The notes beneath the pieces were generated by a model that saw nothing but the letters and a program-made list of their open reading frames with translations, did no database searches and was not told the origin of the DNA. From Psammoneis japonica (taxonomy: Eukaryota), in the NCBI GenBank assembly GCA_008632985.1, contig QPGO01000001.1, forward strand, positions 240,600-304,599: a DNA stretch of 64,000 nucleotides. The letters run 5' to 3'. Position 1 is the first letter of the stretch. The number at the start of each line of letters is the position of its first letter. This document shows, piece after piece, positions 5,752 through 45,200 of the stretch. The translations under genes and the position numbers were made by a program.

Positions 5752-6252
5752 ATGCAGCTACCAAAGCTTGTCAAGGTGGAGGTCCTCTTGAGACGGCTGC
5801 CGCACGATAATCCCCTGGAATCTTTCTTTGGTTTTCTTGATTTGGCTGGAGAGGCGTTGAATCCCCGCAATCACCGCAAAGGAAGGTTTCGGAGCTGGTT
5901 GACTCACTTCTTACTTGTCTTAACCGATTCAGAAGGAAGTCTATACGTGCTCGAACGTACGGATACGAATGAGCAAAACGGTGGAGTAGTCTATCGCAAA
6001 TTGTCAAGCGCTGAAGAGATTGAACAAGAAGGAGCAATCGCAACGATGGAGTGGAGCGGCGAAAAGGACATGAGCAAGGTCGAGGCGTTTGCCAATGAGC
6101 AAAGGTCTTTTTCGTATAGTCTTGTCGACAAGAATTGTCAGCACTTTGCATACGACTTTTTCAGGAATGTTCTATCGGATCCCCGCGCGTTTGGTCCGTT
6201 TGAGAGGTTCACGGAAGAATGTCAATGGATTTTCGTGGACAAAGAATCCTAA
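5752..6252 (+). CDS. Permuted papain-like (PPPDE/LRAT-like, NlpC/P60 superfamily) protein
   Basis: Intact 166 aa ORF. His (LTHFLLVL) precedes the Cys motif YSLVDKNCQHFA, the Y.L...NC.HF signature. Confidence 0.7.
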   Translation: MQLPKLVKVEVLLRRLPHDNPLESFFGFLDLAGEALNPRNHRKGRFRSWLTHFLLVLTDSEGSLYVLERTDTNEQNGGVVYRKLSSAEEIEQEGAIATMEWSGEKDMSKVEAFANEQRSFSYSLVDKNCQHFAYDFFRNVLSDPRAFGPFERFTEECQWIFVDKES

Positions 6253-6432
6253 AATAGAAAGTATACGTATGTCAATGTTGAGGCGAGATGTTGTGAGTAA
6301 CAGTAATGTTTTTCTGCTCCTAGGGTTATACTGTACCTCTAGGAATGGTCAGCTCTAGCTAGCTTTCGAACCTTTCTCTCCTTTGGAGCCGGGGTCATTT
6401 GAAGAAAATAACAGTACCATATATTTATCATT

Positions 6433-7406
6433 TCATTCCTTTTCTCCCTTGAGCACCCTCACTGGACGTAACAGGTCACTTATAAATGAACGTGAACGGT
6501 TCTCGTTGAAACGTTCAACCCATTTCCACGCGGCAAATTGCGTTCCTAGCAATTGACACATCATCCTGACTGCGCGAGTGTGTCTTACAGATTCCTGGTT
6601 GAGAACAGTCACCCGAGCCAGGGCTGCGTTGCGCTCACTTTCTGGTTTTAGATACGCGAAGATTGCCTTTGCTTCCGTTCTGTCGTAACAATCTTGCCAA
6701 GCCTGCTCCACTGCGGTCCGCCAGGTTCGATCAGAAAATTCAAGTCCGCTGAATTCCACGGCAAGACGATCGATCTCATTAGACTTGAATAATCTAGAAA
6801 ACCTGCCATCAACCATTTCCTTTGGTGTCAATATGGAGTAGCTAATGCCCAAGTCGATCTTGGACTTATTCATTTGGTGAGAGTCACTGTCTTTGTACCA
6901 GTTGGTGAAGCCAATGTGGAACTTCAGTTCTGGATGACTCTTCACAAACTCGATTATTTGAGCTAAGCAATTTTTGCACGGTGCCCTGCTAATTGCAATC
7001 AAGACCTCTTTAGCCCTAACGGGCGTTGTCAGCCCATTACACAGCCAATCCAGCATTTCTATCTCTGCATGCTTCCCTTTATCCCGATTTTTAAAGACCC
7101 GGCGTGATCGCTGACACAATTCGAGGTCCCAAGTTGTCGGACTTGTCACCAGCGAGTAACAACGTGTCTCAACCAAGTACCCGACCACGAGAACCGTAGT
7201 AGGGCTTGTAAGACCCGCCGGTCCAAAATACTTCATCCATGCGACCGGAAGCTTGCGAACCCCAGCTTCGTCGTCGATGAGTGTGCGTATTTCTTCCAGC
7301 TTGCCGAGTTTGGCCTCTCCAGATTCGGCATTCTTGGCGGCAGAAAGCAATGCCTCAATCTTTGGAATCAGATTATTGGCTATCTTCTTTTGTGTTCATC
7401 CGTCAT
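6433..7406 (-). CDS. AID/APOBEC-like zinc-dependent deaminase
   Basis: FKNRDKGKHAEIEMLDWL ... ISRAPCKNCLAQIIEFVKSHPELKFHIGFTNWY carries HxE and PCxxC, and its downstream pattern parallels AID ([29 protein letters not shown]). The likely ATG at 7406 needs one extra base in the homopolymer at 7388-7391 to join the long ORF 7350-6433. Confidence 0.8.
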
Positions 7407-8869
7407 TGTGTTGCCAGAACTTAGAGACGTCCTATCTGCTGGTCTGCGGCTATGATCTAATGCACAGAATGTGACCGTGTTCCATCTCTACTCTCGGTCA
7501 CTTCAGGTTTTGCGGTTACCGTGTTTTACACTGACGTCAGGTGTCGTGATTGCAAAGCGAACATGCGGACGCCAGCCAACATCTTGATGGACCAAAAGCT
7601 CGTAAAAACCAGCAACACTTCCGGATCGCCGCTACATTGATGGTATTATTCACAACTAGTCCTATTCAAACAACGCAAACACTGTCAGTACGACCATATA
7701 TCATCAACACTATGCTAAAAAAGTACTGCTTACCATCAATGTGTTACTAAAAAGACCGTGAAAGGAGTTTGCATGTGCACCAATAGCGCAAGAGCCAACA
7801 CCGTGCGAATCCTTGTTGAATTGTTGTGGCTTGCTATTTATTCTCTGACGCCTTGAAGCTTCATTCACTACATTCACATTCTATTCGATCCATGCTTCTC
7901 ATTTTTGACGCAGGCTCTTTGTTGAAGTCGAAATACGGACTATCGCTTCCAAAATGAGTGGATAATCCGGCATGACTTTTTCTTGTGCCTGACGATGAAG
8001 CTCTCCTGAAAGCATAAGGAAAACGTCGACCAAGCCAAATAATATAACACTCACGCTTATTTTGAATGAAATGGTGATTATCAAATATATACTGTACACA
8101 TTTGTCGTCGATCGATTCATCTCGCCTTCTTTAAACCTGCTACTGATGTCAAGGCATGCATCCATTACGATAGCAACTTTCAACACGTTTTGAAACGATT
8201 TTTTTGCTGTTTTTAAACTCACTCTTCGTGATTTAAGCCATCACTTCATAATACCTCGTAAGGCCATTGTCTATTTCAACATAACGAAAGAATACAACGA
8301 GAAAAAACTGTCGTGTCGTCATGTTGGGTTGGGAGCCAACGAAACGTTCTACTGGTATCATACCGTACACTGTACGTATTATCATAGCACAAAACGCGGT
8401 GTGTTTAGTCATCGTATGATATGATGGAGTCTGTACCGGTACGCAACGGACAATCATGTCGGCACGCGTTTTACTATCATCTTTTAGGTTAAAAAAGAAT
8501 ATAAGCAATTTAATGATGTATTTTGGATTTTCTTAAAAAAAGTCTCAGTAAATCATACTCAATATATGATATAATATAAACACGTATATAAGACATTATT
8601 TTAAAATATCCGCCGAAAATTTCAAAATAGAGTACAATACTATGAATTACAGTACAGTACCAGGTATGATTGATGAATTTTTCAAAAATGAATTTGCTGG
8701 AGGTTCGGGTTCGTTGCTTCCAAACTCCTGAAACAACGTGTCGTACAGCACCGCGCAGGGATAGATGATGTCAATGTTCATCAATTGAATAGGAAGACTT
8801 CTGAACGATTCGTTGCATCAGACACACAGCACTGACAGGGAGCATCAAAAGTGTTCAGAGCAGTGCGAC

Positions 8870-10672
8870 ATGTCTTCCAGGAAAGCTACCAGCGTTCTGC
8901 CGGATTCTGTGGCTTCAGCTCCGGTTGCAGCTGCTGCAGGCCCGTTATTTGACGAAACAGAGTATGCGGAACTGCGAACACATTACTTGGAAGAGCGCAT
9001 GTGGTCCAAGGAATTGACCGATGGAATCAGTCTTCGTCCACGGCCAAAGGCATCTCGCATGGATTGTGAAAAGGGCCCGGGTTGGAAAGCTCTTCGGCAA
9101 CGTGTTGCAACATTGGAAGCAGAAAATAATCACAATGAGATATTTCGTCTTTTGTCGCAGCTCAAGCAATGGGAGCAGTTACGAGGCGTATTCCCGAGCG
9201 TTCCTGGAGGAGGTGGCACCACGAGCGACGTCCAAGAAGTCATCGATCTCACAAATGCCCCCGACGATGATGAAGTAATTGATGTAGAATCGTACATTGT
9301 CGACGTGCTTCTGGTAAAAATTGTCAAGGCCGATCCAGATTCACTCCCGGACGAGAATGCCAGCGTGCAACCCATGCCTGTAATGTCATCAACCCTTCCG
9401 GACATGGGAAACTGCGGTCCCAATCCAGAGAGTTCCACATTGCTTCCCACTCAATCTCCAACCACTGCTCAAAAGAAATTAGTTCATGCCGATTGGCAAC
9501 CCGTCGGGCAAATGCTGCATGGCAAAGCATCGGATTATTATTTTGGTGATTCTGTCGCCTTGTCTCGTGATGGTAGTGCCATGGCTGTCGGAGCGGATAA
9601 AATTTCCAATCCCGGCTATGTTGTTGTCCATCGACACAATCCAAGCAACCAACAATGGATACAAATTGGCCAAGAATTGGTTGGACAACGTCATATTGGC
9701 TATTATGGCTATTCTGTTTCATTAAATGGCGACGGCACCATTCTTGCGGTTGGAGCGCCGTCTGTCGGTCACGTTCGCGTTTTTGAATACTACTCTGCAT
9801 TGGATCGTTGGGTCCAACTCGGCAGTGACATTCTTGGACATGACGCTCGTGACCAATTTGGTGTTTCCGTGTCGCTCTCGGACGCTGGAGACATTCTTGC
9901 CGTGGGAGCTGATTTGGATGACACAGAAAATGGCTATGGTTCCGGTTCGGTTCGATTGTTTCAATACGACCGTGGCTCCTCATCCTGGAACCAACTCGGT
10001 CAAACACTCATTGGCCAAGCTCGTGATGATTCGTTTGGCAGCTCTGTTTCTTTGAATGCGCAGGGAACCATTGTTGGCGTTGGAGCGCATTGGAATGATT
10101 CGGGCGGAAACAATGCTGGTCAAGTGTCGGTGTATGAATACAATTCTGCCTCGTCAAAATGGGATCCATTGGGTGACTCAATCAATGGACAAATCGTTTA
10201 TGGTTATTTTGGATATTCTGTTTCACTTGACGACAGTGGTTTGATTGCGGCCGTGGGTGCATGTGGAAGGAAAAACGAAAGGGTTTTGGTTTATTCGTAC
10301 GACCGCTCAACTTTGACATGGAATCAACGCGGCCAAACTCTCTTGACACAACAGCCTGGTAATTATTTTGGATGGTCTGTTTCGTTGAGTGGCAATGGAA
10401 ACGTCTTGGTGGTCGGAAGTGAAGATCATGACGTCAATGGAATGGATCGAGTGGTTCAAGTTCGAAACTTTCAGCACGACAGCAATGCAGATGAATGGAA
10501 GCAAGTTGGAGATCCTTTAAATGGCGAGGCTGAGTATGATGATTTCGGAAATTCCGTGTCCTTGTCGGCCGACGGAAGCGTCGTTGGTGTTGGTGCTCCT
10601 CTACCACTAACAAACAATGCCAATTGCAGACGTTCCGGATCCGCGTATGCATTCACGGTAAACAACAATTAG
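8870..10672 (+). CDS. FG-GAP repeat (integrin-alpha-like beta-propeller) protein with unrelated N-terminal region
   Basis: Seven repeats of (Y/F)G.SVSLS.DG..LAVGA ... W.Q.G..L.G from about 9490 to the end. ATG at 8870; no signal peptide is apparent. Confidence 0.85.
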   Translation: MSSRKATSVLPDSVASAPVAAAAGPLFDETEYAELRTHYLEERMWSKELTDGISLRPRPKASRMDCEKGPGWKALRQRVATLEAENNHNEIFRLLSQLKQWEQLRGVFPSVPGGGGTTSDVQEVIDLTNAPDDDEVIDVESYIVDVLLVKIVKADPDSLPDENASVQPMPVMSSTLPDMGNCGPNPESSTLLPTQSPTTAQKKLVHADWQPVGQMLHGKASDYYFGDSVALSRDGSAMAVGADKISNPGYVVVHRHNPSNQQWIQIGQELVGQRHIGYYGYSVSLNGDGTILAVGAPSVGHVRVFEYYSALDRWVQLGSDILGHDARDQFGVSVSLSDAGDILAVGADLDDTENGYGSGSVRLFQYDRGSSSWNQLGQTLIGQARDDSFGSSVSLNAQGTIVGVGAHWNDSGGNNAGQVSVYEYNSASSKWDPLGDSINGQIVYGYFGYSVSLDDSGLIAAVGACGRKNERVLVYSYDRSTLTWNQRGQTLLTQQPGNYFGWSVSLSGNGNVLVVGSEDHDVNGMDRVVQVRNFQHDSNADEWKQVGDPLNGEAEYDDFGNSVSLSADGSVVGVGAPLPLTNNANCRRSGSAYAFTVNNN

Positions 10673-16805: not shown

Positions 16806-19067
16806 ATGAAGTTCTCCAGTGAAGGAGTTTTTTGCCTTCTTGCAGTTGCTTTTAGCCAAGCGGCAGGCAAGCAGAGCTTGGTGCCTCTCATTGTGGATGT
16901 TGTGTAACAAGGACAACTTTTGCTCACTTCTTTTGTGTGTTCCATGCTTTTCTCGCAAGCGTTTGACATCAAAACTAAAAAAAGAGCAAAGGGCACTCTA
17001 CAATTTTGATGCAAGCAACAGGAGAGCAATTGAAGTTTTGTCTGAACAATTCCTTTGCTTGGACTAATCAACATGATTCGTCACCCATTTTGCTGCATGA
17101 CAGAAATGTGAGAATGCAAGTGGTCAACTCAAATCGGCAGGGGATTGCGCAGTTCTGATTCTTTCAACAAAAAACAAGAAGAAAGTGCTCCTGTCTGCCA
17201 CCAGCCCGCAGGATGGCATCTATGGTGATGTGTGCATGGCTGCGGGTGGATCTCTTGAGAGGTCCGGAAAAGCTGTTGTCTTTGGCGGTGCTCTCTTTGA
17301 ACCCGGCGCAACTGCTCCAAACGACATTGCAGACTTCAAAACAGGTGCAGTTGACCAAACTGTTGATCTGTCAGACAAGGCCAATGATGCGATGGAGGCT
17401 TCAACATTCTTTGAAGATCAGAACTGCGACTTGACTGTTGCTTCCCTTGACTCAGAGATCAATCTTTCAATTTGCGGCGAAAGAGACGTTTGTGTCTGCA
17501 TCAATGGCGCACTTCAAATCACTTCGGACGTTGCCATTGTCGGTGGGGACAAGACCAGGGCGGTTTTCAACATTGAAGATGGTCCAGTCACCAACAGTGC
17601 AAAAGTCTTGGGCAAAGGTTTCATTGTGCCAAAAAACATCATCTGGAATGTCCTGGGTGGGCCAGTGAGCTTGACAAGCAGTGTCCTCGATGGATCAATC
17701 CCAGCCATTGAGAGCAAGGTGGACATGGTGAAATCCGAGGTTGACGGTCAAGTTGTCTCTGGCTTGTCAATCCGCATCTTCAACGGATCTGCCGTGAACT
17801 GCAATGAGAGGCCAGAGTCACCCCCGACTCCAGCTCCTGCCAAACCCCCGACAAAGTTTGGCGCGTGCTGCCTTTCGGGCAAAAGATGTGCAAAAATCCA
17901 AGAAGGACGTTGCATCAGGAAGAAGGGCAAGCACCAAGGAGACGACACCAGCTGTGACATGCAGGACATTGAATGCCCACGCGTTGGAGCCTGTTGCTTG
18001 CCAAGTGCCAGAGAGTGCATCCTTGCAAAAAAGAGCAAATGTAGGATGCAGGGAGGAGGCAAGATCCGCCTTGGAAAGAAGTGCAAGGACGTGACTTGCC
18101 CTGAAGCACTGACTCTGTCGCCAACTCAAACGCAAAAACACTGCCTCCAAAGGAGACTCCACCACCGATGGAGACTCCGTCACCTGCTTCAAAGCAGGCG
18201 CCAACCCCGGATGAAAGTCCGTCGCCGACTTCAAAGCCAACACAACCCCCGACTTCAACACCGACACTGTTCCCGACTTCAAAGCCAACACTGCCTTCGA
18301 CTTCAAAGCAGACACAACCCCCGACTTCAAAGCCGACACTGTTCCCGACTTCAAAACCAACACTGTTCCCAGCTTCAAAACCAACACTTTTCCTGACTTC
18401 CAAGCCGACACTGTTCCCGACTTCAAAACCGACACTGTCCCCGACTTCAGAGCCGACAACCCCCCCCGAAGAAGACTCCGGAGCCGAATCCAAAGAAAAC
18501 AAGGCCCCCGATTCCAAATCCGATGCTGCCCTTTAAGAAGACTCCCAAGCCTGCTCTCCCTGCAAAGAAGACTCTGGCGCGACTCCAAAGAAAACAAGGC
18601 CCCCGACTGCAAATCCAACGCTGCCCCCCAAGAAGACTCCTGAGACTCTGGTGCCAACTCCAAAGAAAACAACGCCACAGACTAAAAAGCCGACGTCACC
18701 CCCTGAGAAGACGCCTGCTTCACCCCCCAAGAAAACTTCGAAGCCGAAGCCAGCTGCTGGTGCTTGCTGCATCTTGAGGCATGGAAGGTGCCGCGATCGC
18801 ATTGCCAGTTCAAGGTGCCAAGGTGGCGGTCACAAATGGGGTGGTGCAGGAAGCTCATGTGGCGACAATGGATTCTGTCCCAAACCGACTCTTGAACCAC
18901 GAACTCCACGCAAGAGCAATGGTGGCAATGAAAGCAGGAGTTCGGGATCTAACTCTGGGTCAGGCAGCAAGAGCAAGGAAAAGAGCAAGGAAAAGAGCAA
19001 GGAAAAAAGCAAGACTTCTGGGTCGGTTTCAGGTTCGGCTTCTTGTCAAGAGAAAATCAACAAGTGA
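16806..19067 (+). pseudogene. Hypermutated pseudogene of the secreted adhesin-like family (closest to 48516-50459)
   Basis: Colinear with 48516-50459 including upstream sequence and introns. It shows Y->C/H substitutions, both donors read GCAAG (16867, 17011), and there are frameshifts from about 18130 onward. Confidence 0.9.
18220..18465 (+). repeat. 24-bp coding tandem repeat (PTSKPTLF units)
   Basis: Repeated CCGACTTCAAA(A/G)CC(A/G)ACACTGTTC. The homologous shorter array is at about 50040-50140. Confidence 0.85.
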
Positions 19068-22509: not shown

Positions 22510-22980
22510 GACCTGATTGGAGTGAATGTTTTGCTCATGACGATTCTCACACTTTTTCTTTCTTTGTTTGAATCGAAAAATGAAGTCAACTGTCACCTTG
22601 TTGACTATTGTTCCAATCTTGATAAGGCTTGGTTGAGTCGTCGAGTTATGCAAGCCAAAAATAATGCTTGCGCGTCCTGCTTGGATTGACTTTTTTGCTC
22701 GTGACGACTCTCAAACTTTTCTTTCTTTCTTTGAATCGATTTGAAGATGTGCTGTTTCCTCGCTGACTATCGTTCCAATCTCAATCAGGTTTGGTTGAAT
22801 TGAAATCGAGTTAATCAAGAAAAAATAGACTTGTGCATCCTGCTTGGAGTGGTTCTTTTGCTCATGACGACTCCCCCGCTCTTCTTTCTTTGAATCGAAA
22901 AATGGAGCTGTGCTGTCGCCTCGCCGATTTTCGTTCCAATTTCGAACAGGCTTGGTTGAATCGAAATAGAGTTGTGCAGG
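22510..22980. repeat. Three imperfect tandem copies of a ~163-bp unit
   Basis: Units start near 22513, 22677 and 22840, each CTG.TTGGA.TG...TTTGCTC(A/G)TGACGA...TTTGAATCGA...GTTCCAAT...TTGGTTGA. Confidence 0.8.
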
Positions 22981-24704
22981 CCTTGAGAGCGTCTGGAGCT
23001 TGCTGCCTTCCGAATGGAAGATGTGCTGCCTTCCCGGAAGCGCGTTGCGACAAGAAGAAAGGAGAGCACCAGGGTGACGACACCAACTGTGACATGCCAG
23101 ACATTGACTGTCCCACGGTTGGAGCGTGCTGCTTGCCAGGTACCGGAGAATGCATCGTTTCCAAAAAGAGCGAGTGTGGGATGCAAGGAGGCAGATTCAA
23201 GCTGGGCAAGTCGTGCGAAGACGTCTCGTGTCCTAAAGCACCAACTCCGCCACCGACCCCGCCTAAAGGGGCATGTTGCATTGTGAGAAATGGAAGGTGC
23301 CGCGACAATGTGCCTCTTTCAAGGTGTAACAGAAGCGGTCGCGAATGGGGAGGTGAAGGGAGCTCGTGCAGTGACGAAGGCTTCTGTCCCACACCAACCC
23401 CTTCCCCAACTTGCTGCTTCGAGGATGGTGACTGCGACGTCGTGGAGGAGGGCGAATGTACAGGCGAATTCCAGGGTGTCGGTCAAACGTGCGATGACGT
23501 TTCCTGTCCCGTGCCTTGTGAACTTTCGGTTGACAAGTTCTGCTCGGTACCCAGGCCGCCAACGTCAGATTTTGATTGCGACAAGCCTATCGAATCCCTG
23601 AGCATGAGATGGGATGGTGAGGAGGAGCCCATCAGCATCATCGCGTACGCGGGAGATACTGACGAGGATGTTTTGGCCGAGATTGGTGACATCTCTGTTG
23701 GAGACGTGGTGACGGTTACGGGTTACAGCGACGCTCCCAAAGACGTTTTCTGGGAAGTTTTTGATTCGGCAGGAAGCAAGCTTGGTGAATCCATGTTCCA
23801 TTTGTCCTGCTCGGATGACGATATGAATGGCCCCGAAGACTGCTTCAAGAACCAAGGAAACGGCAAAAAGGACGATGATGATTTCATCAATGACTGGCTT
23901 TTGGAAGGCATGCAAGACAGCCAATCCACCTTTTTCTGCACTTCCCAAGACCCTCAAGAAACTAGTGAATGTGAAGCCTTTATCGGCGGTGGTGGGTGCG
24001 AAGGAAAGGTGACTGCTTTGTACTTTAGGTATGAAGGGGGCGGGTGCGATCAAACCACCAACACGCAAGAAGGAAAGGTCGAGTGTGATGATGATGTTGT
24101 ATCGGATGGTGGACCCGTTAGCGTCGAAGCTGTTTCCGACAAAACCGATATCAGCCCAAGTACCGAAACCATCAATATTGGAGACGAGTTTGTCGTTACA
24201 GGCGACGATAAGCTCAAGAGTGATACCGAGTTTGAAATCACTCAGAACGGCAGTCCTCTCCAAGAACTCAATATTCACACTTCATGCTCAAAACCCCTTA
24301 GCGTTGGCGACAGTTTCGGCAGCGTGCTTCTTGTTGGATTGGACCAAGAAAAGGGCCCGGACCTTCGAATCTCGGCTAATGTTGACTATACCTACGTGAT
24401 TCGAAACACAGGCAGCGTTCCGGCCGTGGACATCAGTGTGGTGGATGATCAAGTTGGTGAAATTGATGAGATTGATACTCTGGATGTGGGTGAAGAAGTT
24501 GTTCTGACCGCCACTGACTCTATCGATGTAGACACTGTCAATGTTGTGACGGCGAGCGGTAAGTCACAACGGGGTGGCAAACAATGTCGCGATAGCTCTT
24601 CCGCTGCCGTGAAAGTGACCCCGGCGCCTCCTAGGAGGAGCAAGGGAAAGGGCAAGGGTGGCAGTAAGAGCAAGGACAAGAGCAAGAGCTCTGGCTCCTC
24701 TTAG
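22980..24704 (+). CDS. Extracellular Cys-rich protein: GACC repeats + two acidic H(L/T)SCS domains + Ig-like (DUF11-type) domain + K/S/G tail; true 5' end unresolved
   Basis: The GACC repeats are homologous to the other family copies. Other motifs are FHLSCS / IHTSCSKPLSVGDSFGS, YTYVIRNTGSVPAVDISVVDD, and the tail SKGKGKGGSKSKDKSKSSGSS*. The annotated ORF start (22833) lies in the tandem repeat. Confidence 0.75.
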   Translation, partial: ALRASGACCLPNGRCAAFPEARCDKKKGEHQGDDTNCDMPDIDCPTVGACCLPGTGECIVSKKSECGMQGGRFKLGKSCEDVSCPKAPTPPPTPPKGACCIVRNGRCRDNVPLSRCNRSGREWGGEGSSCSDEGFCPTPTPSPTCCFEDGDCDVVEEGECTGEFQGVGQTCDDVSCPVPCELSVDKFCSVPRPPTSDFDCDKPIESLSMRWDGEEEPISIIAYAGDTDEDVLAEIGDISVGDVVTVTGYSDAPKDVFWEVFDSAGSKLGESMFHLSCSDDDMNGPEDCFKNQGNGKKDDDDFINDWLLEGMQDSQSTFFCTSQDPQETSECEAFIGGGGCEGKVTALYFRYEGGGCDQTTNTQEGKVECDDDVVSDGGPVSVEAVSDKTDISPSTETINIGDEFVVTGDDKLKSDTEFEITQNGSPLQELNIHTSCSKPLSVGDSFGSVLLVGLDQEKGPDLRISANVDYTYVIRNTGSVPAVDISVVDDQVGEIDEIDTLDVGEEVVLTATDSIDVDTVNVVTASGKSQRGGKQCRDSSSAAVKVTPAPPRRSKGKGKGGSKSKDKSKSSGSS

Positions 24705-31382: not shown

Positions 31383-33183
31383 ATGAAGTTCGTAAATAAG
31401 GGAGTTTTCCTGCTTCTTTCTGCTGCATTCAGTGGAACAGCAGGTAAGAAGAGTTTCATACTTGTAGTTTCGCATAAATGGAATGTTGTTTCGATGGGTT
31501 TTTGCTCACTTTTCACAACTCTACTTGTGTCTGTGTTTTTACGCAGCCTCCGATATCAGAACAAATAAGCAAAGGACTCTCTACAGTTTTGATGTAAGTT
31601 TTGAGAGAGTAATCGAAGCGCGATGAAAAAATCATTTGCTCGTGAACTGTTGTCCTTTCATATACGTATGATTCAAATTGAATGTTGTATGTTGTTCGGT
31701 ACGCTCTGCTAATTAGAAATGCGAGAACGCAAGTGGGCAGCTAAAGTCTGCGGGCGATTGCGCTGTACTAATGCTGTCAAAAAATAACAAGAAGAAAGTG
31801 ATTTTATCTAGTACCCGCTCGCAGGATGGCGTCTATGGAGACACTTGTGTGGCTGCTGATGGATCTCTGGAGAGGTCTGGTGAAGCTACTCTATTCGGCA
31901 GCGCTCTGTTTGAGCCCGGTTCAACCGCTCCAGATGACATTGAAGATTTCACAACGGGTGAAGTCGACAAAACTGTTGATCTATTTGAAAAAGATAATGA
32001 CGCGACGGAGGCATCGGTATTCTTTGGTGATCAGGACTGCGACTTGACCGCTACTTCCCTTGACCCGGAGATTGATCTTTCGGATTATGGCGACAGAGAC
32101 GTTTATATCTGTGTTGACGGTGCTCTTGAAATCACCTCAGATGTTACTATTGTTGGAGGCAAAAAGAACAGGGTGGTTTTCAACATTAAAGAGGGCCTTA
32201 GTTCCAACGGCGCCAATGTCCTAGGAAAAGGATCTATCAAACCGAAAAAAATTATCTGGAACGTCCGCAGCGGTCCAGTCGTCTTGAGAAGCAGTGTCCT
32301 CGACGGCTCAATCCTTGCCATTAAGAGTAAGGTGGACATGTTAAGATCCGAGATCAACGGTCAACTTATCTCTGGCTTGTTGATTCGCATCTTCAACGGA
32401 TCAGCCGTGAATTGCAACGAGAGGCCTGCGTCACCCCCGACTCCGGCTCCTACCAACCCCCCGACAAAGTTCGGTGCGTGTTGCATTTCGCGTAAAAGAT
32501 GTGCAGTCATCCCAGAAGAACGTTGCATCAGGAAGAAAGGCAAGTACCAAGGCGACGACACCAACTGCAACATGCCGGACATTAACTGCCCCCGCATGGG
32601 AGCCTGCTGCTTGCCACGCACTGGAGAATGTATCACTGTCAAAAAGAGTGAATGTAAGGTGCAAGGAGGAAAGTTCCGGCTCGGAAAGAAGTGCGAGGAC
32701 GTGAAATGCCCAAAGCCACCAACGCCAAAACCGACTCCACCCCCGAAGAAGACACCGCCGCCGCCGCCGTCTCCGTCTACTGGTGCCTGTTGCAGGGTGA
32801 AGTATGGAAGGTGCCACGACAATGTTTCTCTATCAAGGTGCCAAAGAACTGGTCTTAAATGGGGAGGTGCAGGCAGCAAGTGTAGCGACGATGGATTCTG
32901 TCCCAAGCCTACCCGTTCGCCAACTCCAGGGAAGGGTGGCAAGAGTGCTGGCAAGCACATAAGCTCGGGGTCTAGCAGCGACGTTAAGGGCGGAATCGGC
33001 GGCAGCTCTAGCTCTAGCTCGGGGTCTAGTAGCAGCGGCGGAAAGGGTGGAAAGCGCGGCTCGGGATCTAGTAGCTCTGGGCCCAAGCAACGGCGGAAAG
33101 GGCGGAATGGTGGCAACTCGGGATCTAGTTCCGGTTCTGGCTCTGCATCTAGTGCCGGCTGGGGTGGGTACCGTGGCGGGTAA
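31383..33183 (+). CDS. Secreted adhesin-like protein: ice-binding/choice-of-anchor-A-like domain, 3 GACC Cys repeats, Pro/Thr/Lys linker, G/S/K tail (exons 31383-31443, 31547-31593, 31717-33183)
   Basis: Signal peptide MKFVNKGVFLLLSAAFSGTAA. Two GT-AG introns keep frame. Beta-solenoid-type motifs VVFNI...IIWNV...GSILA...INGQLIS. Confidence 0.85.
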
Positions 33184-36559: not shown

Positions 36560-39500
36560 TGGATTGGATGAAGGCATCAGAATCAAAGTTCCAAAACACA
36601 AGAGGGCAGAGGAGGTTCCAGATCTGGGAGCAACCTCAGTGCTTCCTGAGAATGTCAGCTGGTTTGTGGGAACCTTCAATGAAATAAAACTCAAGGAGGA
36701 AACCAGAGGCAATCCCCTCACACACACAGTGGCTTGGAGTGTGGGATGGTGGCACTGTTCACAACTGACTTGTTGTCATCAAACATGCAACATGTGTCAT
36801 GAATTGGGATGCTGAGGTGATGCAAAGTGATTTGAAGATCAATGATCTGTTCAACACATGCCCTCCTTGCTGCAACAAACTCAGATCTGTGCATCACAGT
36901 CTTGACTGTTGCTTGTTTCTTGGGGAGCCAAAATCAGCTGGGAACTTCTTCAGGAAATGGATGATGCCCATGACAGAGCGTCCAGTGAGCATGCAAAGGA
37001 ACAAGTTTGTGTTGACACAATGAGCTGTGGTTACAAACTTGCCAAGTGGCTTGGGCACATCTTGTGGGAGGAGCTCTTCTACATCCCTGTGCATGGATTG
37101 AGCCCAGTTGCACATGGGCAATGTCTGAATGGTCGGGTTCCTTGGTGCGCACTGGGAGCACACCATGTTTCATCTTGGACAGGTGTTCGCAGACATGCTT
37201 GGTGTGATCCAGATGGCATTGACGGGGTGCCGTGTGGAAGCTGGACAGGGACATGATGGCCACAGCAATGTCAAGAATGCACCAAGCGATGCAACCCATT
37301 GCAGGGAACCAACCAAAGATTGGAGTTGATGGGGGCCATTGGGTTTGAGCAATTTGGAGGTGTCAAGCTCAGGGTGGTCACCCTTTTCAAGAGGGGAAAG
37401 CATGTCAGTGCAAGGCTTCTCCCCAACAAGACATGCACAGTTGTTGACCATGCACTCAATGTGCTTGCAAGGAGCAAGGCACAGGGTGCCATCTGAATCA
37501 TGGGTGAAGTTACAACCAAGATGGAGCTCCAATGGTCCAGTGCCCTTGAGCTTGAACTTGCCTTTCTCTGTGAGAGTGTCTGCAAAAGCTTGAGGGTCCT
37601 TCACATTGAAGGCCAGGTTGTCCACACACACTGCCATGTGTGCACAGTGGCCACTGTTCCAATGCAACCAGATGTTGGGTTTGGCACGACATGGTGGGAA
37701 GAAACCTCAGGCACACAAACAATTGGTGAAGCATTCATGCCACCTGAGGCTGGAGCTGCAGAGGCCATGTGGATCCTTGCAAAGGACAAGGATGTGTCCT
37801 TCCAGCTTGCCAAATTTGGGGCCTGCTGCAACACACAATTTCTTCTTGGGGTCACAACTTTGAGATGGGCATTGCCAATGTCGGTTGCCCACATCTCCAG
37901 TTCATTGAGTTCAGTCAGGAAGATCATCAGTCAAAGACCACGGAGGGACACCACTCCAGAGCAGACACAGGCACATCCACGAGGTGTCCATTGGCAACAA
38001 GTCATGCTTTGTGCCTGCCATCATGGTTGACATCACAGATGAGGTGGACCCTGATCTTCTTGTGTCCTGCTGGGGCACTGGAGTCCTTGCTGTGTCCACA
38101 ATCATGAAAGACCTCATGCTGCTCACCAAGCTGAGTCATCTTGAGGTCCCTTGCATCTCCCCACTTGCGGTTGCCATTGCACTTGTCAAGGGCCAAGGCA
38201 TGCTGCTTGCAGTCCCGGGGCACTTCACACCCACACTTGTGTCATGGGTGCAGTGTGAAACAAGCACAGCTTGGCTTGGTTGGCCATGCAGAATGGCTTC
38301 TTCTGTTGCAGAGCTATGGTCCAGAAGTGCTTCCATCCATTGGTTTCAATCAAACTGTGCTTGCGTGCACATTGATGGCAAGAGGTTCAGACATGATCTT
38401 CCCATTCTCCCGTTCAAGCATGACATTGCAGCTTGAGCTTTTTCCAAGAGGTGTTGTGAGGTCTCAAAGGTCCTTTGCGTGAAAGGATGCATCGGAACTT
38501 CCAAAGGGCAGCATCCTTGTCTTCTTGCCATGTGTGGTGCATGATGTCACTGCAGGCAAGAATTTCCTCACATTTGTCATTGTTGTCAAAGAGCAAATGA
38601 TTTTGACAACTTCTGGGTTGTCACCAATTTCCCAGTCATGGTCTTCAGCAATGGCCTTGATGACGCGGGTGGCACAGCAGCATTGTCCATGATCCTCTTG
38701 TGGCTTTGTGAGGAAGGCACCTCTGACAATGTCCTTGGGGTCAAAGACAGGCATTTTGGGCATCCTGATTGCCTCCCCATCTGGCGAATCTGGTGAATCC
38801 TCAGAGTTGTGTTGGGATTTGATGATGGCTTCAGCAGACTTCCCATCAGGAAGATCAAGATGCAGGTTGCAGGCAGATGGGTCATGAGCAGAATGCAAGT
38901 TCAAGCAGCAAAGTGGCTTCTGAGTGTTGTCAGAGAGAATGTTGAATGTCATTTGATGACCCACGTGTTTGGCGATGCCAATGAAGCAACCACACAACTC
39001 ACAGGATTCAGATGGCCAGTTGGAATCATCCAGGTGGCAGCACACAGGTTCCCACCACTGAAAACAGAGGAGGGGGTGGTTGTCAGGATGGGATCCAGAT
39101 GGCACTTCAGTGGGAGCATGCCAGCGGCACTTGGCAGATGCTGTGTGGTTGAGCACAAAGCACATGCACATGAGAGCAAGGAGCCAGGTGCAGGCTGGGA
39201 ATCCAAAGCAATCCATGATGGCGTTGGCCACTCTGGTGCTGTTGGTGGGGTTTGCTTTGACAGCTGGAGATGAAGTGAGCACAAAGGATGCCAAGGACCT
39301 TGTTGCTGATCTCAACATGGGCATGATTGCTGATGAGCTTGGACAGAGCACCACGGTTGTGAATGTTGTCTTTGAGCATGTTGACAAATTCCTTGTCAGT
39401 CTTGGTGCTGCACACATCAGTGATGAGGGATTCTGCACCAACAAAGAGCTGTGCACTGACACATCCAGAGTCAATGGCACAGGTGTTGGAGCCCACAGTG

Positions 39501-41785
39501 TCAGCAGCAATGGGTTCATTGTGATGGTGGACATTGAGGGCTGTTGGGTGACTTGTGTGCCTTTTTCGGGAGCGTGCTGGTGGACATGTGGGTGCACTGT
39601 GTCGCACAATCAAAAGTGTGGCAGACACTGTCCTTTGGGAGGAAGCCAAGACAGGGGTGCAGGGGCTCATGGTCAGGATCCTTGGGGTTGATCTTGTGCT
39701 CATGGCATTTGGCTGCACAAGAAATCAGATGTTGGAAGGATGCAATCATCAAGGATGGAGTCCGCAAACATCGTGTTGTCATGGGGCAAATTGTCCCATT
39801 CAGCATCGGTGTGTGGGTGCATGGTGATGCATGGCAGGCCACCTTTTGTGTCAATGGGAATGACACAACCATCAATGATGGGGTGATGCACTGCAGGCCA
39901 TTGTGGGAACCTTGATTGATTGGTCATTGATGTTGTGCTTGCACCACTTGAGTTGGCCGCAAGAGTGTGTGGTCTTGCCCTTTCCAGTGCAGGAGTGCAT
40001 TGATGAAGGATGGCAATGGCAGGTCCATGCTGTGTGTGGATGACACCACCGGCAGTGACAACAGGAATGTCAACAAGCTGATGGCTGGTTGTCAATGCCT
40101 TGCATGTCAACCTGGCAATCATTGTGGGTGATGACACAAACATTGTCACCAGCGATGCTGCCATTGTCACCATGATGATCCACTGGAGCACCCTTGCATG
40201 TCAAGTTGTGGGTCAAGGCAGAGCAGACAACATTGTGATTGTTGACATGATGGCAAGTGGGACCATCAATCTCAGTGTTGGAAGCAGCACCAGGGGAGGA
40301 TGTCAATCCAGAGGGTTTCTTGCCAGAGCAGGCCGAGGGTGGTTTGTTGGTCAAAACAAGGCATCGCAAACCACCAGGTGGCAAAAGCTTGTGCCTCGTG
40401 AGGTGTGCCAGGATGGGGCCAGCATCTGTGGCAGTGGCTGTGGCACTGGGTGGTTCAAGAGCCAATGCAACGTTGTGAGCATTGGCAGACAAGTTGACGC
40501 TGCCATTGCTTCCCAGACAGAGGTCGTGGAGGTTGACAGCCGATGAGTCATGGCAGTTTTGCTGGCATGGGTGGTGCATGAGCCAAGGATGATGGCTTTG
40601 GTGGGCTGAGGGAGGGGGTCCCAGATGTGCTGGTGACCTGGTGGGATGCAACGCCATTGTTGCTCCTTGGTGAGGGAGGCACCATGAGTTTGCAAGGCAT
40701 GAGCCTGGATGACGTCAACGTTCTTGCTGTTGATGTTGAAGAATGCATCATCATCAGTGTCATTGGGGGCCAGGCCATGCATGCAGACGGTGAGGTGTGG
40801 GGCATGGGAGGTTGTCTTGGGGGTGAAAGTGCTGTTGCATTGCACTGCTGCAGAAAGCAGGAGCCCGCAACATTGCTCACATGAAAGGATCATGCCATTC
40901 TGTGTGTGATGCTGGTTGGCTTGGTTCTCAAGTGAGCACAGTTCTTCAACAGGGTGGATGGCATTCTCAAGCATGATGCACTTCTGTCCAGCAGAGAGAA
41001 GTGGTCTGCAGTCAGAATCAGGGCCTCACACTTGAAGAGTTGAACCTGCCAGTGGAGCATGAAGGCATGGATGGAGCTTTTCCAGGTGCCATCACTGAGG
41101 TGAGCTGTGGTGAGGTGCATTGTGAGAAGGGTCTGTGACTCCAGGGATGCACGAGTGGATGCAAGAGTGCACTTGGAGAGTTTGCAACACAGTGCTTGAG
41201 CATCAGAGGAGCCGACGTGTTCGCTGGCAAGTGCCCTGCCTTTGTGTCATTTTGCAAGATGCTCTTCTGTTGTTTGGCAAACAGGGCATTGTCCTTGGGT
41301 GCAGAGGGCTTGCACATCAGATTGAGGATGCAGTTGACATCCTGGGAGCAAGCCTGTGTGATGATGGAGGTGTGCCATGTGTGCCACTGCTTGTCAGACT
41401 TCAGAATCGCGATGGTGAGTGGGTTGCATTTGACACCTTGTTTGAAGTCACACACTGGGTCACATGGTTTTGGGGGCAAAGAGCTGGCCATGGGAGTGGA
41501 TGGTGAAATGCCAGAAAAGAGGGATGCCACGGCAAATTCTTCATGTGCAAACAAGGTGGGGTTGCCACCAATGTCAGCAACTCCATGGCAAAGGCGTGTC
41601 TGACTGGTGCCATCATTGCAAACTGGGGAGTCAAGTTGTCCTGGAGCAAATGTGAAGAGATCCTGGCATGAGTCAGTCCCATCAATGCTGAGGGCAGAGC
41701 GCAATGAGCTGTTTGCAGCTTGGTTTGGGACAATGCTCAAAATGTGCTCAAAGCTGTTGGTTTGTTGCTGCCTGGTGAGGGCCAT
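36560..41785 (-). mobile_element. Degenerate Ty1/copia (CoDi-like) LTR retrotransposon gag-pol
   Basis: On the minus strand the order is gag (FKQGVKCNP...KSDKQWHTW), protease-like (VDHHGDNGSIAGDNV), integrase (IAADTV..NIHNRGALSKLIS..PHQQH), RT (KIRVHLICDVNHDGRHKA; ATDIGNAHL; GPLELHLGCNF) and RNase H ending SQIWNLL.PLVFW. Many frameshifts; TA-depleted. Confidence 0.85.
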
Positions 41786-42210
41786 GGTGCAAAAAAAGAG
41801 AGTGCTGGAGCTTGATCCAGGAGTTGAGCTAGACTTGACTTGAAACTTGACTTGAGGTCTTGAGCCATCTTGCAAATCAGAAACCCTGGGCCATGACACC
41901 CCGTTTGCAGACTTGTTCCAGACTTAGGTGGTGCACTCCCATGCCCGTTTTTGCACAAAAAATGAACATTTTGTGCTTTGCACAACAAGATGCAAATGGA
42001 TGTCACACAGTTGGTGCAGTCGTGCAAGCAAGGGGCAGTTGACGTGCGCAATTTCGCAGGCAGTGCGCTCGAATTTTGAACTGATTCTGGTGCCGTGTTC
42101 CTTTGTGATGGTGGGTTTTTGTTGTCTTCCAGGCATGGCATCAGTGCTCTCTGTGGACTGTCGTTTGGCACACAGTCTGGACAGGTGGTGGTCGATTGCA
42201 TCCGGGTCAT

Positions 42211-45200
42211 TCAATGTTTGTAGAGAGACAGACCTGTGCCATCTTCCCACTGGGGTTGCCTGGAGCTGATCTGAGAGGCGGGAATGCAGGATCCCCTGAG
42301 GCAACGGTGGGTTGCCCTGACTGTGGCGACACTCATCCTCGCGTTGACACAGCCGCACACTTCAGAATGTGGCTTTTGCCACAAGTCTGAAAGTTTTGAT
42401 GCTGTCTTGCGGAGCATCGCCTTGGCTTCTTTGCCAAAAAGCCCATCGCATGACGACACAACGAATGGTGTGAAATGACGGCGTTGTTCCAGACATGGCT
42501 GGAGGCATTTGCGCTTCTTTTCACGTTCGTGGCTTGCTGGGACTTCTTCTGGTGTTTTGGATGGGCATGACTTCGCGTCCGTGTGGGGATGCAAGTGTCC
42601 GTCACCATGTCTGTCCTTCCATCCCAAAATCTCATGCTGAGAAGGTCTCCACGATTGCCATCCTTGGACTTGTTGGAGTTGGTGTTTCCTGAAGTGCTGT
42701 TGGGGGTGCTTGAGCTTCCCGCGCTGTGACTGGCAGGATTGACAAGAGGTTCATCGCGCACGTGGGAAGGTTTGCAAGCCTTGCCCATTGGGTCTCTGAG
42801 GTTGTCGCGCACTTCATCGTGTCGTGAGATGACTGGGCAGCCCTTCTTGCACTGAAGAGCGTGGTTCATCCATCACAGTGCTCCGGGAGGTCGGGTGACG
42901 TGTTCCAGCCCTACCGTGTGACATTGGGCCCGCAGAATTCTGCGTGCGAGCTCCGCAGTGCGAGAATTCAATCAATGGACACATTTGTCTTCAACATCAA
43001 ATGAACGGCCAAGTTTGTGGTGCAATTGTGCCTCTTGCCACTCGATGTTTTCGCAAATGCGCCTGCCCTACGCGATTCTTAAGACATTGTAGAATCGCGC
43101 TGTAACAAAAAAGTCAAAAGTTGTTGGACGGATCGCTCAATGAGTGCACCGTAAAATGACACAAAATGTCGAAAAAATCACGTAGAAATCTACGTGCGCG
43201 ACATACGACGTGATTCAAAAAACTGTCGATGTCACAGTTCAGCAGTGCGAGGTCCCACCCAGACCTGGAACACGTCGGGTGGAGCACCCCCATGCCATAG
43301 AAAGAGAGCATTGCGGAACTCTTGGCATGAGAGTTCCATGCCATTCAGTGTCGAAGGGTGTGCTGACAGCCATGCTCCAGTCTTGGTGCTGCACTTGACA
43401 GCTCTGTGCCGTGAAGGTTGGGTGGGGTCCTGAGGATCATTTTGAGGGTCTCTCCATGCGCTTTAACTTTTCCATTGGCTGCTTCCTGTTTCACTTTGTG
43501 CATGGTGTCCTTGTGGACTGCGGAGGAGAACTGGGAACGACCATGGAGTGAGTCGATCACGTGGGAGCACGTGAGAGTGCTCACTTCACAGTCACGAGCT
43601 GTGGACTCAGTTGGACGAGGGATGGACAGTCCCAAGAATTTGATTGGGAGGGCGGATGGGGCCAATCTCGGATCATCATCGGCGAAGGTCTCGCCTGTCA
43701 ATGCTGGCAGGAAATTGTGCTGCATTGCACGTTCTGCGTCAGCAAACGATTCACCACAATCCTTTGCCACCTGTTGGACATGCTGCCACTGGTGTTGCAG
43801 GGACTTTTGCAGACCGGCGCAGGCAGTCTGAGGGTGGTGGATTGCAATTTTGGCAAGTCCTTGGACAACCGAGGTCCATGACTTGGCTTTTTCCACCAGC
43901 CAATGGTCACGTGCATCCGTCTCACTGACGAAGCCTCCGAGGCAGTGGCTGCCAGACTCGACAGTAAAGCCCAGATCCCCAAAGCATGCTCCAGCATTTT
44001 CCAGGTTGCATTCTGGGACTGCTGGGATGTTCTTGGAGTTGTCGGCAGGGCAGTGTCCATGTTTGGGGCCTTCGGCTTGGAGAGTGAGGAAGAAGTCCCG
44101 CAGGATGTTAAATTTCCCAGCTGCTGCTGAGTCATCGGCGCACCAAGGGGTGAGTGCATCTTTGAAACGGTCATTCATTTCACCGACTGGTGGAAGAAGT
44201 CCCAGTCCGCATGCTGCCACACCTGGTGGATCGCCCTGTGTGACACCTTCTTTGCTGAGCAAGATGAAGGTGGTTCAGAAGTTCCCGTGGATGATGAGGA
44301 TGCTCCAATGCTTGTGGCAGTTGAAGGTGAACCTTGCACCGGATGGCCAAAGGTGCCTTGCATTGTGTGGCATCAATGCCCTGTTTTCTTTGTTGAATCC
44401 ATTGGAGGCGTCAACAAAGAGAAATCTGCAGTCGTCTTCGAATTTGTGTTGTTCCCAGAGCATGCTCATCACATGGACGGCACCCTCAATGCCTGCTTCC
44501 AGTCCAGCACACAGCTGGTCTGCACCACAAGCTTCCTTGGCTTCTGCTCCGGCAACCAGGAGAATGGCTTTGGCGGTGGCTCATTGCCACACCTCCCCCA
44601 CACCAACCGGATGTGCACCCGGGTTTTCATCTGGCTCGACGAGTCGTTTTGCCATGATTGCACAGCATGCAGCCCATGGGGGCGACTCGTTTGCTGGCCA
44701 GTTTGCAAAGTTGCGTGACACTTCACTGAGCAACCCGCTGGCCTTTCCGTGATGGAGAAGCCATTCTGACAATGCGTCAGCATCAGATCCACCAAGTCCT
44801 GCACCTCCAGAAAGTCTGTGCGCAATGGTCTCGATGGTTCCATCGGTGATGAGTGCACCCTGAAGCTCAGGTAACTCACTGAACTTGTGAAAATGGTCTT
44901 TGTCTGGGATCCTCTGACTTGGGTGTTTCTTCTGAAGAACCTCAAACACTGAGTTGTTGGTTTTTTCATCGATGTCATCTGGTGAGAGGATTCCACCTTT
45001 CTCACATTCGGAGATGCACCCAACCACTCCTCGCAGGTTCCCTTGGAGCACCATTCCATTGAATGTCTTGGCGTGCTGCTCAGGCATCTCCTCCCTTTGA
45101 ATGGTCTTCAGGTTAGCTTCAAGCAACCGCTCCATTGACTGGATCAGCATTTTGTGCTTGCCCGCATCCCAATCGTCCATGCGCGTGCTGAGCAAAGTTC

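Follow-up and report, generated by a model that had tools for sequence, protein, structure and literature searches.

The deaminase locus and its transcript

We analysed a 64,000-nucleotide (nt) stretch of contig QPGO01000001.1 (hereafter the window, to whose positions all coordinates refer), in which a gene on the minus strand encodes a predicted deaminase of the AID/APOBEC type (AID/APOBEC-like deaminase, AAD). Its main reading frame is open from stop to stop at positions 6433-7395, comprises 320 codons and is closed by a TGA codon at 6433-6435. The initial annotation of this locus had described an HAE motif, the motif SRAPCKNC and an AID-like continuation, and all three are found on the minus strand at the places claimed; the continuation after SRAPCKNC reads EFVKSHPELKFHIGFTNWY, with the residues TNWY encoded at 6895-6906. 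The start of the gene had been placed at the ATG at 7404-7406, giving a span of 974 nt (6433-7406). This part of the annotation had to be abandoned, as the ATG lies one base out of frame with the main frame and opens 8 codons only. A tblastn search of the 64 kb with the deaminase protein revealed no second copy of the gene. The features of the locus are given below, including two introns that were recognised from contigs of two sequencing runs (X1 and X2).

7662..7733, minus strand: 72-nt GT..AG intron (GTAAGCAG...TTGAATAG) upstream of the frame, in the putative 5' untranslated region (UTR); absent from the X2 contig, present in X1
7404..7406, minus strand: family-conserved start codon (MTDE...), here opening the 8-codon frame MTDEHKRR, which ends at TAG 7380-7382
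7392..7393, minus strand: site where one base, the G of codon 5 (CAG), has been deleted, adjoining a run of four A (A4) at 7388-7391
6433..7395, minus strand: main open frame, stop to stop, encoding an N-terminal hairpin, the deaminase domain and a C-terminal extension; 50% identity to family member P0001 across 100% of the main-frame length
7261..7395, minus strand: N-terminal extension, residues 1-45, a predicted two-helix hairpin (helices 2-22 and 26-44; predicted local distance difference test, pLDDT, 73-94 in this block)
7234..7236, minus strand: first in-frame ATG, Met59; would give a 267-residue product without the hairpin and most of domain helix 1
6670..7260, minus strand: AID/APOBEC-type deaminase domain, approximately residues 46-242, as delimited by structural alignments and Pfam; takes in two extra helices after strand 5
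7063..7071, minus strand: HAE (residues 109-111), with the zinc-binding His109 and the catalytic Glu111 as assigned by motif and alignment
6967..6981, minus strand: PCKNC (residues 139-143), with the zinc-binding Cys140 and Cys143 and no insert between them, as assigned by motif and alignment
6895..6906, minus strand: TNWY, end of strand 4 and start of loop 7; in the profile alignment Asn165 stands at an Arg of APOBEC3F and Tyr167 on the loop-7 Tyr
6436..6669, minus strand: C-terminal extension, residues 243-320, predicted to be all-helical, basic; family motif around RAVRMM...FAAWKW
6249..6336, minus strand: 88-nt GT..AG intron (GTACAGTA...TATTTTAG) 97 nt 3' of the stop codon, in the putative 3' UTR; absent from X2, present in X1

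Runs X1 and X2 derive from one sample, and both were seen as contigs; a third run, X3, gave no contig at this place. X1 provided one contig (depth 63.6) that is unspliced and identical to the window, whereas X2 provided a 3,189-letter contig (depth 12) with identical letters that skips 88 nt and 72 nt. On the plus strand the skipped pieces start with CT and end with AC, which corresponds to GT..AG on the minus strand when a one-base ambiguity is resolved. From 6337 to 7661 the X2 contig is collinear with the genome, and it contains no coding-region intron. Since X2 skips both flanking introns and is collinear across the coding region, the gene is transcribed and its coding region is intron-free. 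The earlier observation that no intron is apparent thus holds for the coding part, the spliced X2 contig skipping the two flanking introns only. That two canonical introns are skipped in X2 and kept in X1 is best explained if X2 represents complementary DNA (cDNA), and the total contig size of X2 (29.9 million letters, the longest contig being 16 kb) fits a transcriptome. The short GT..AG introns also indicate that the genome is eukaryotic. Contigs, it should be added, cannot yield transcript ends or levels.

The break between the conserved start codon and the main frame was evident from comparison with relatives of the gene, which are described further below. Their proteins start with MTDEQQKKIANN (P0023), MTDEQQSRIAN (P0003), MTDLQQNKIAN (P0001) and MTDEQQRRMAD (P0020), the general pattern being MTDEQQ(K/S/R)(K/R)IAN. 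When the DNA was aligned at this point, the window read ATGACGGATGAACA-CAAAAGAAG, locus L002 ATGACGGACGAGCAGCAAAAGAAG and locus L005 ATGACCGATGAACAGCAAAGGAAG; hence GAACA-CAAAAG in the window stands against CAGCAAA(A/G)G in L002 and L005, and the G of codon 5 (CAG) is missing between 7392 and 7393. The initial annotation had pointed to a frame problem at the homopolymer 7388-7391 and called for reads to be checked there. The break proved to be real, but its supposed cause did not: the lost G lies between 7392 and 7393 and adjoins the A4 run. As to the check itself, it was made on contigs, not reads; the X1 contig and the spliced X2 contig both carry the break, neither has an inserted or deleted letter at it, and the X2 contig shows 0 differences and 0 gaps. 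Because the break is present in both a DNA-like and a spliced library, and because a G was lost while the length of the A-run was not altered, it is not a homopolymer artefact.

The consequences for translation would be considerable. Ribosomes that start at the conserved ATG would translate no more than 8 codons, and the first ATG of the main frame (Met59, at 7236) would be reached only behind three further upstream ATGs; those preceding it are at 7406, 7399, 7331 and 7240, the one at 7331 opening a 32-codon frame that overlaps 7236. Met59 would in addition lie inside the first helix of the domain, as the model has helices at residues 51-57 and 60-63 and the structural alignments start at residues 46-54. 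With the conserved ATG cut off from the 320-codon frame, this copy is probably disabled, or else a strongly weakened or N-terminally truncated allele. The disabling would seem to be recent, because apart from the break the frame is free of lesions and the hairpin codons cut off by it have kept 60% identity to P0001. Programmed frameshifting was considered as a separate matter and rejected: a -1 shift would be needed, CAC AAA AGA holds no canonical slippery heptamer, and the A4 run appears too short for transcriptional slippage.

Assignment to the AID/APOBEC deaminases

The initial annotation had proposed that the protein is of the AID/APOBEC type and not a metabolic CDA/dCMP deaminase, and sequence and structure searches agree on this point. 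Nine AAD models of Pfam exceeded their gathering cut-offs, led by SNAD4 (48.2 bits against a cut-off of 27, E 1.4e-12). The others were, as score/cut-off, NAD1 (46/27), APOBEC_N (44/25), APOBEC2 (43.6/26.8), NAD2 (40.2/27), APOBEC3 (34.6/27), APOBEC1 (31/27), APOBEC4_like (27.6/26.7, which is marginal) and APOBEC4 (27.5/27.2). The generic CDA/dCMP model, dCMP_cyt_deam_1, stayed under its cut-off (15.2 bits versus 25, E 0.02). Five of the AAD models each match 8 or 9 of the 11 rows of alignment A1, fragments included. The names NAD and SNAD are not to be read as clade assignments, because these models cross-react with mammalian APOBEC3F; the tree-shrew protein reaches 393 bits with NAD2, 348 bits with NAD1 and 286 bits with SNAD4. 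The sequences of known structures gave the same picture: the best match of the protein in the PDB was APOBEC3F (2e-7), the top 16 of the 33 rows were APOBEC3 or AID chains, and with a profile of eight family members all 26 rows at E<=0.01 were APOBEC3 chains.

The AlphaFold2 model of the protein, for which the alignment of the family was used (mean pLDDT 78.2, predicted template modelling score 0.69), shows the usual five-strand deaminase sheet. It also shows the N- and C-terminal helical extensions that had been suggested earlier, with helices at residues 2-22 and 26-44 and from 245 to 309. Among the matches that Foldseek listed for this model in the PDB there were only APOBEC3C, F, B, G and H and AID, with E-values down to 1.1e-8. 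VIA, a structural search independent of Foldseek that covered 48,161 representative chains, placed AID first (Z 14.2, 181 residues aligned), together with APOBEC3G (13.1), APOBEC3H (13.0), APOBEC1 (12.9) and APOBEC2 (9.5). The Z-scores of other deaminases were lower, namely 7.0-8.1 for dCMP deaminases (97-115 residues), 7.4 for ADAT2/3 and 6.4-6.8 for TadA. The fold comparison proposed in the initial annotation therefore came out in favour of AID/APOBEC enzymes (Z 12.9-14.2) and not of free-nucleotide or tRNA deaminases (8.1 at most). In the APOBEC3H alignment, residues 46..241 of the model fall on residues 1..186 of the chain, that is, on the entire enzyme. AAD structures align over 170-181 residues of the model at an identity of 14-20% for the vertebrate enzymes, and the aligned part takes in the two extra helices that follow strand 5, a trait of AADs according to Table 1 of Iyer et al. 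2011 (PMC3239186). As judged by sequence and predicted structure, the protein is a classical-type AID/APOBEC-like deaminase and not a CDA/dCMP or tRNA deaminase.

To evaluate the residues that define these enzymes we used the diagnostic features set out in Table 1 of Iyer et al. 2011 (PMC3239186) and in the corresponding part of Krishnan et al. 2018 (PMC5889660), and counted conservation in an alignment of eight family members. His109 is present in 8/8, Glu111 in 7/8, Cys140 in 7/8 and Cys143 in 8/8. Ahead of the HAE loop, where loop 3 starts, FKN of the window protein aligns with FRN of APOBEC3F; at this position AADs have Asn or a small residue that touches the target base, and Asn103 is kept in six of the eight members, the others having Ser or Thr. 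Leu189, a large hydrophobic residue in all eight, closes strand 5 (residues 185-188/189 in the model, YSIL). The encoded domain thus appears to keep the full catalytic set (His109, Glu111, Cys140, Cys143, the loop-3 Asn and the loop-7 aromatic residue).

The region following the zinc-binding motif deserves closer attention, since the initial annotation had set TNWY of this protein against ARLY. The pairing is correct by profile alignment, in which IGF-a-n-W-y falls on I-(K/S)-(T/A)-A-R-L-Y of APOBEC3F, and the difference in this substrate-contacting region is real. Trp166 is kept in all eight members, and the position of Tyr167 is Tyr in six. As Tyr167 aligns with the Tyr of ARLY, it would be the pocket Tyr. 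The loop-7 aromatic residue limits the pocket to a pyrimidine, according to the relevant part of Krishnan et al. 2018 (PMC5889660). The family's target-motif preference probably differs from that of APOBEC3 and AID owing to the N/H-W-Y stretch. Two further positions depart from the vertebrate pattern. None of the eight members has Arg or Lys as the basic residue that closes strand 4; this position is Asn in the window protein and Asn, His or Ser family-wide. The Trp of SWSPC is likewise absent. In vertebrate AADs, according to Iyer et al. 2011 (PMC3239186, in part), this motif consists of SxS before PCxxC with the Trp in strand 3; here the family motif is S-R-(A/S)-P-C, strand 3 reads LIAIS, and Ser136 and Arg137 are invariant (8/8).

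Relatives of the gene and its neighbourhood

Exhaustive scanning of 1.84 billion cluster representatives with HMMER yielded 19 matches at E<=1e-3; 10 of these reach E<=1e-10, and 4 reach E<=1e-30. Word-based homologue searches had retrieved only one and three members of the family, the exhaustive scan giving the rest. Six full-length members, P0001-P0006, have 299-336 residues and are 35-51% identical to the window protein; P0023 from cluster 10 is a seventh, with 360 residues, and the family overall is 31-51% identical to the window protein. The ten family clusters contain 1-3 members each and stem from ENA, Logan or JGI assemblies, and all ten lack an informative name and any accession in NCBI or UniRef. 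The other nine matches at E<=1e-3 were mammalian APOBEC3 proteins, one cockroach protein and unnamed sequences. A profile of the family core separates the two groups: no member scores below 125 bits and no outsider above 40.5 bits, the outsiders showing 26-41% identity across only about 56-86 residues. In a collection of viral contigs, none of the 84 pattern matches encodes a relative. The APOBEC literature on diatoms and stramenopiles provided no published description of the family, although the supplementary sequences of Krishnan et al. 2018 may include members; the Phaeodactylum gene that appears in PMC11857586 as an 'APOBEC RNA editing enzyme' is so called by annotation only.

Both extensions are common to all full-length members. 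The N-terminal one is as conserved as the core, being identical to P0001 at 30 of 50 positions and to P0023 at 28 of 50, while the core is identical to P0001 at 95 of 188. The C-terminal extension, about 80 residues long, is predicted to be helical and has an isoelectric point of 10.4 (residues 243-300); folded by itself it reached a pLDDT of 70.1. No Pfam family matches either extension, and known AADs have nothing that corresponds to them. The best structural match of the C-terminal extension (Z 5.6) was to generic helical hairpins, and VIA returned only generic two-helix structures for the N-terminal hairpin (Z about 6-7). We would guess that hairpin and basic tail bind nucleic acid or partners, or that they have a regulatory task. 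A homodimer prediction of the protein scored 0.19 against a mark of 0.32, which tells nothing either way about self-association. By hydropathy, the Kyte-Doolittle maximum (window of 11) over residues 1-60 does not exceed 1.29 in any of the eight members. Taken at the level of sequence and model, the family appears to be a small, insert-free, intracellular AAD family of the classical type that is so far without a name.

Inactivation is not confined to the window. P0023, which is encoded at four metagenome loci (L001-L004, e.g. L002 2566-3648), has HGA for HAE and PG..C for PC..C and has thereby lost the catalytic Glu and the first zinc-binding Cys; it falls just under the Pfam cut-off (26.1 versus 27). 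This protein also has an acidic tail rich in Ser, Asp and Glu, and it looks like a naturally inactive paralogue or orthologue. At L005 (the P0004 locus, 239-301) the conserved MTDEQQ start is followed by an in-frame TAG at codon 21 (MTDEQQRKIAWAVIPKIRAL*VEAENA). The gene call for P0004 starts just past this TAG; as the coverage of the contig is low, the codon may be an error or a second independent disruption. The relevant part of Krishnan et al. 2018 (PMC5889660) names gene loss and repeated inactive copies as hallmarks of AADs engaged in arms races, and the inactivation pattern fits a conflict role, although as circumstantial evidence.

Around the deaminase gene, 26 frames of the window were scanned (25 stop-to-stop frames of at least 200 codons and a 166-codon neighbour at 5752-6249), and none of them belongs to a reverse transcriptase, integrase or transposase family. 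No terminal or flanking repeats were found around the gene, Rfam and tRNA scans of the window gave no matches, and across 20 kb of the window nothing but the deaminase gene itself is shared in gene order with L001-L005. The 166-codon neighbour (5752-6252 with its stop codon, plus strand) is convergent to the deaminase gene and contains an NCQHF motif. It has a weak match to PPPDE/Peptidase_C97 (E 2.1e-4, 21.6 bits versus a cut-off of 29.2) and no sequence match in the PDB. The acceptor of the minus-strand intron at 6249-6250 abuts its stop codon at 6250-6252, so that the two transcripts would overlap.

Several other frames of the window may be mentioned. Four paralogous frames on the plus strand (17101-18393, 31717-33180, 48816-50456 and 52138-53625) match pAdhesive_15/Ice_binding-like domains (E 2.7e-5 to 1.8e-8) and form a dispersed family. 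A 629-codon frame at 22815-24701 (plus strand) matches DUF7467 (E 8.5e-32) and DUF7507, and a 627-codon frame at 8789-10669 (plus strand) has FG-GAP repeats (E 7.3e-31), in the DNA of which a 40-nt unit recurs as four diverged copies (9682-10384). The region 38001-44000 shows a GC-skew excursion of 0.14 to 0.22 (2-kb bins) with a GC content of up to 0.53 and contains long frames with no Pfam match. The window also has an aminotransferase-like frame whose best homologues are up to 49% identical.

Interpretation and relation to known deaminase clades

Taken together, we consider it likely that the locus is a transcribed nuclear gene of an unnamed protist family of classical-type AADs, and that the copy in the window is frameshifted. 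By analogy with APOBEC3 and AID, the family would most likely act on single-stranded DNA or RNA and deaminate cytosine there to uracil. As its membership of the AADs would imply, the reaction would proceed by hydrolysis of a flipped-out cytosine held in a pyrimidine pocket closed by Tyr167. The same analogy makes mutagenic restriction of foreign or selfish nucleic acids the most likely role. A more far-reaching version, which we put forward tentatively and regard as doubtful, is that the family represents an undescribed, protist-specific branch of classical AADs serving as an innate mutator defence of microalgae against single-stranded DNA viruses or long terminal repeat (LTR) retroelements, and that it is repeatedly lost because it is costly to its owner.

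Several points weigh against this interpretation or parts of it. The family does without two signatures of classical AADs: strand 4 does not end in a basic residue, and Arg takes the place of the Trp in SWSPC. The assignment of the substrate, be it DNA or RNA, and of any defence role is by analogy alone, and the neighbours give no hint of defence, the gene being single-copy in 64 kb with no retroelement nearby. With regard to the transcript, the RNA nature of X2 is deduced from two joints and the run is labelled 'DNA?', and the 3' intron at 6249-6336 may belong to another, overlapping transcript of the minus strand. With regard to the break, the two runs share one sample, the assembly may have been made from X1, and contigs drop minor variants, so that an intact second allele is possible. 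Finally, the frame has no other lesion and the hairpin is conserved, which leaves room for some translation from a near-cognate start or by reinitiation.

One alternative is that the copy still functions, producing an active deaminase with an altered N-terminus from Met59 or from a near-cognate start in the main frame, for example the CTG that encodes Leu9. The gene is transcribed, its 320-codon frame contains no other stop or lesion and encodes all catalytic residues intact, and the 53 codons ahead of Met59 are open and 60% identical to P0001. However, an open frame is explained equally well by a recent mutation, four ATGs precede 7236 with one of their frames overlapping it, Met59 falls within the first domain helix, and the loss of a hairpin conserved like the core should matter; we therefore hold a functional copy to be unlikely. 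Another alternative is that the frame break is an error of sequencing or assembly in an intact gene. The break does adjoin the A4 run and X1 may be the assembly's own source data, but the separate library X2 carries identical letters, it is a G that was lost with the A-run unchanged in length, and four bases are rather few for a systematic homopolymer error. Such an error is consequently quite improbable.

Other alternatives concern the nature of the family. It might consist of conserved, single-copy editors of an endogenous target, comparable to APOBEC1, APOBEC2 or APOBEC4, and not of defence mutators. The window has one copy, the clusters have 1-3 members each, the neighbourhood shows no sign of defence genes or mobile elements, and conserved single-copy AAD clades are described in the relevant part of Krishnan et al. 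2018 (PMC5889660). Yet the members are only 31-51% identical to the window protein and three lineages have disabling changes (the frameshift, the catalytic loss in P0023 and the stop codon at L005), and such divergence and disablement are more in keeping with dispensable conflict genes that evolve fast than with an essential editor, which makes this alternative also an unlikely one. It is hardly credible, on the other hand, that a metabolic (CDA/dCMP) or tRNA (TadA/ADAT) deaminase has come to look superficially like APOBEC. HxE and PCxxC are indeed common to all enzymes of the deaminase fold, and weak matches to dCMP_cyt_deam_1 (E 0.02) and to dCMP deaminase structures (Z 8.1) were obtained. 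Against this, the generic model lies under its cut-off and nine AAD models lie above theirs, AAD structures score 5-6 Z units higher over 170-181 versus 97-115 residues, and the AAD-typical aromatic residue of loop 7 is present (Trp-Tyr, as opposed to the small residue of TadA/ADAT, with which the pocket is purine-sized). A contaminant or a very recent transfer from an animal might be suspected from the nearest matches outside the family, which are mammalian APOBEC3s and a cockroach protein, and algal AAD 'hits' that were contamination are mentioned by Krishnan et al. 2018 (PMC5889660, in part). We give this next to no weight: the gene lies within a 64-kb window that contains no N, the X1 DNA contig spans gene and flanks at even depth, the GC content of 0.459 (bin 6001-8000) is inside the window range of 0.436-0.533, and the outsiders, at 26-41% identity over about 56-86 residues, show the two extensions in none of the alignments inspected.

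If the preferred interpretation of a frameshifted gene from a protist family of classical AADs is correct, it has several implications. AID/APOBEC deaminases are the textbook enzymes of mutagenic defence and antibody diversification in vertebrates. A second algal or protist AAD family, of the classical, insert-free type, would bear on whether AADs entered protists more than once and on whether they are older in eukaryotes than thought. Were the mutator defence true, APOBEC3-style restriction would operate in unicellular phototrophs independently of the zinc-insert AADs of cnidaria and algae, and the family would offer candidate restriction factors against viruses and retroelements of marine microalgae. 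Likewise, N/H-W-Y in place of R-L-Y at strand 4 and loop 7 would predict a new target-motif preference of use for base editing, and the altered substrate loop together with the small size may interest those who engineer base editors. The window copy is a candidate natural null or hypomorph, and strains with and without the deletion, should they exist, would be a ready comparison. We regard the find as fairly unusual for protist biology and deaminase evolution, tempered by the known precedent and by the broken copy.

Among known systems, the vertebrate AADs (APOBEC3 Z domains, AID and APOBEC1) are the best sequence and fold matches of the family. They share with it HAE, an uninterrupted PCxxC, the Asn before the HAE loop, the loop-7 Tyr, the hydrophobic end of strand 5 (Leu189), the two extra helices and the lack of a signal peptide. 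Unlike them, the family has Asn, His or Ser for the strand-4 Arg and SR(A/S)PC for SWSPC, adds an N-terminal hairpin of 45 residues and a C-terminal extension that is helical, basic and about 80 residues long, and has a host which, so far as one can judge, is no animal. The classical AADs of invertebrates (arthropods, lophotrochozoans and echinoderms) are among the nearest matches outside the family (P0016 from Diploptera; the unnamed P0015 and P0017) and resemble it in their patchy distribution, rapid divergence and inactive copies, but they score at most 40.5 bits versus at least 125 in the family, and neither extension is seen in the alignments. The secreted AADs (SNAD1-4 and those of dictyosteliids) include SNAD4, the family's top Pfam name at 48.2 bits; they carry a signal peptide, whereas the N-terminus of the family is hydrophilic (MTDEQQKK... 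in relatives) and has no such hydrophobic stretch.

The comparison closest in terms of host is that with the cnidaria-algae-APOBEC4 clade. AADs outside animals are known sporadically, and the published algal ones form a zinc-insert clade thought to be derived from cnidarians. This clade (Micromonas, Emiliania, Nematostella) likewise consists of AADs, is sporadic in photosynthetic protists, and has been proposed to comprise mutagenic defence enzymes (Iyer et al. 2011, PMC3239186; Krishnan et al. 2018, PMC5889660; both in part). Its members have zinc inserts, whereas the window family has in this place the short loop GPAGLTSPTT, free of Cys and His, between helix 60-63 and strand 68-79. They also have an insert between the catalytic cysteines (CxnC), in contrast to the two-residue spacing found in all eight members of the window family (seven with PCxxC, P0023 with PGxxC). 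Since both defining features of the clade are lacking, the window family would stand outside it. AADs in algae have been known since 2011 and 2018, and the present family appears to differ from the published algal clade in both of its defining features.

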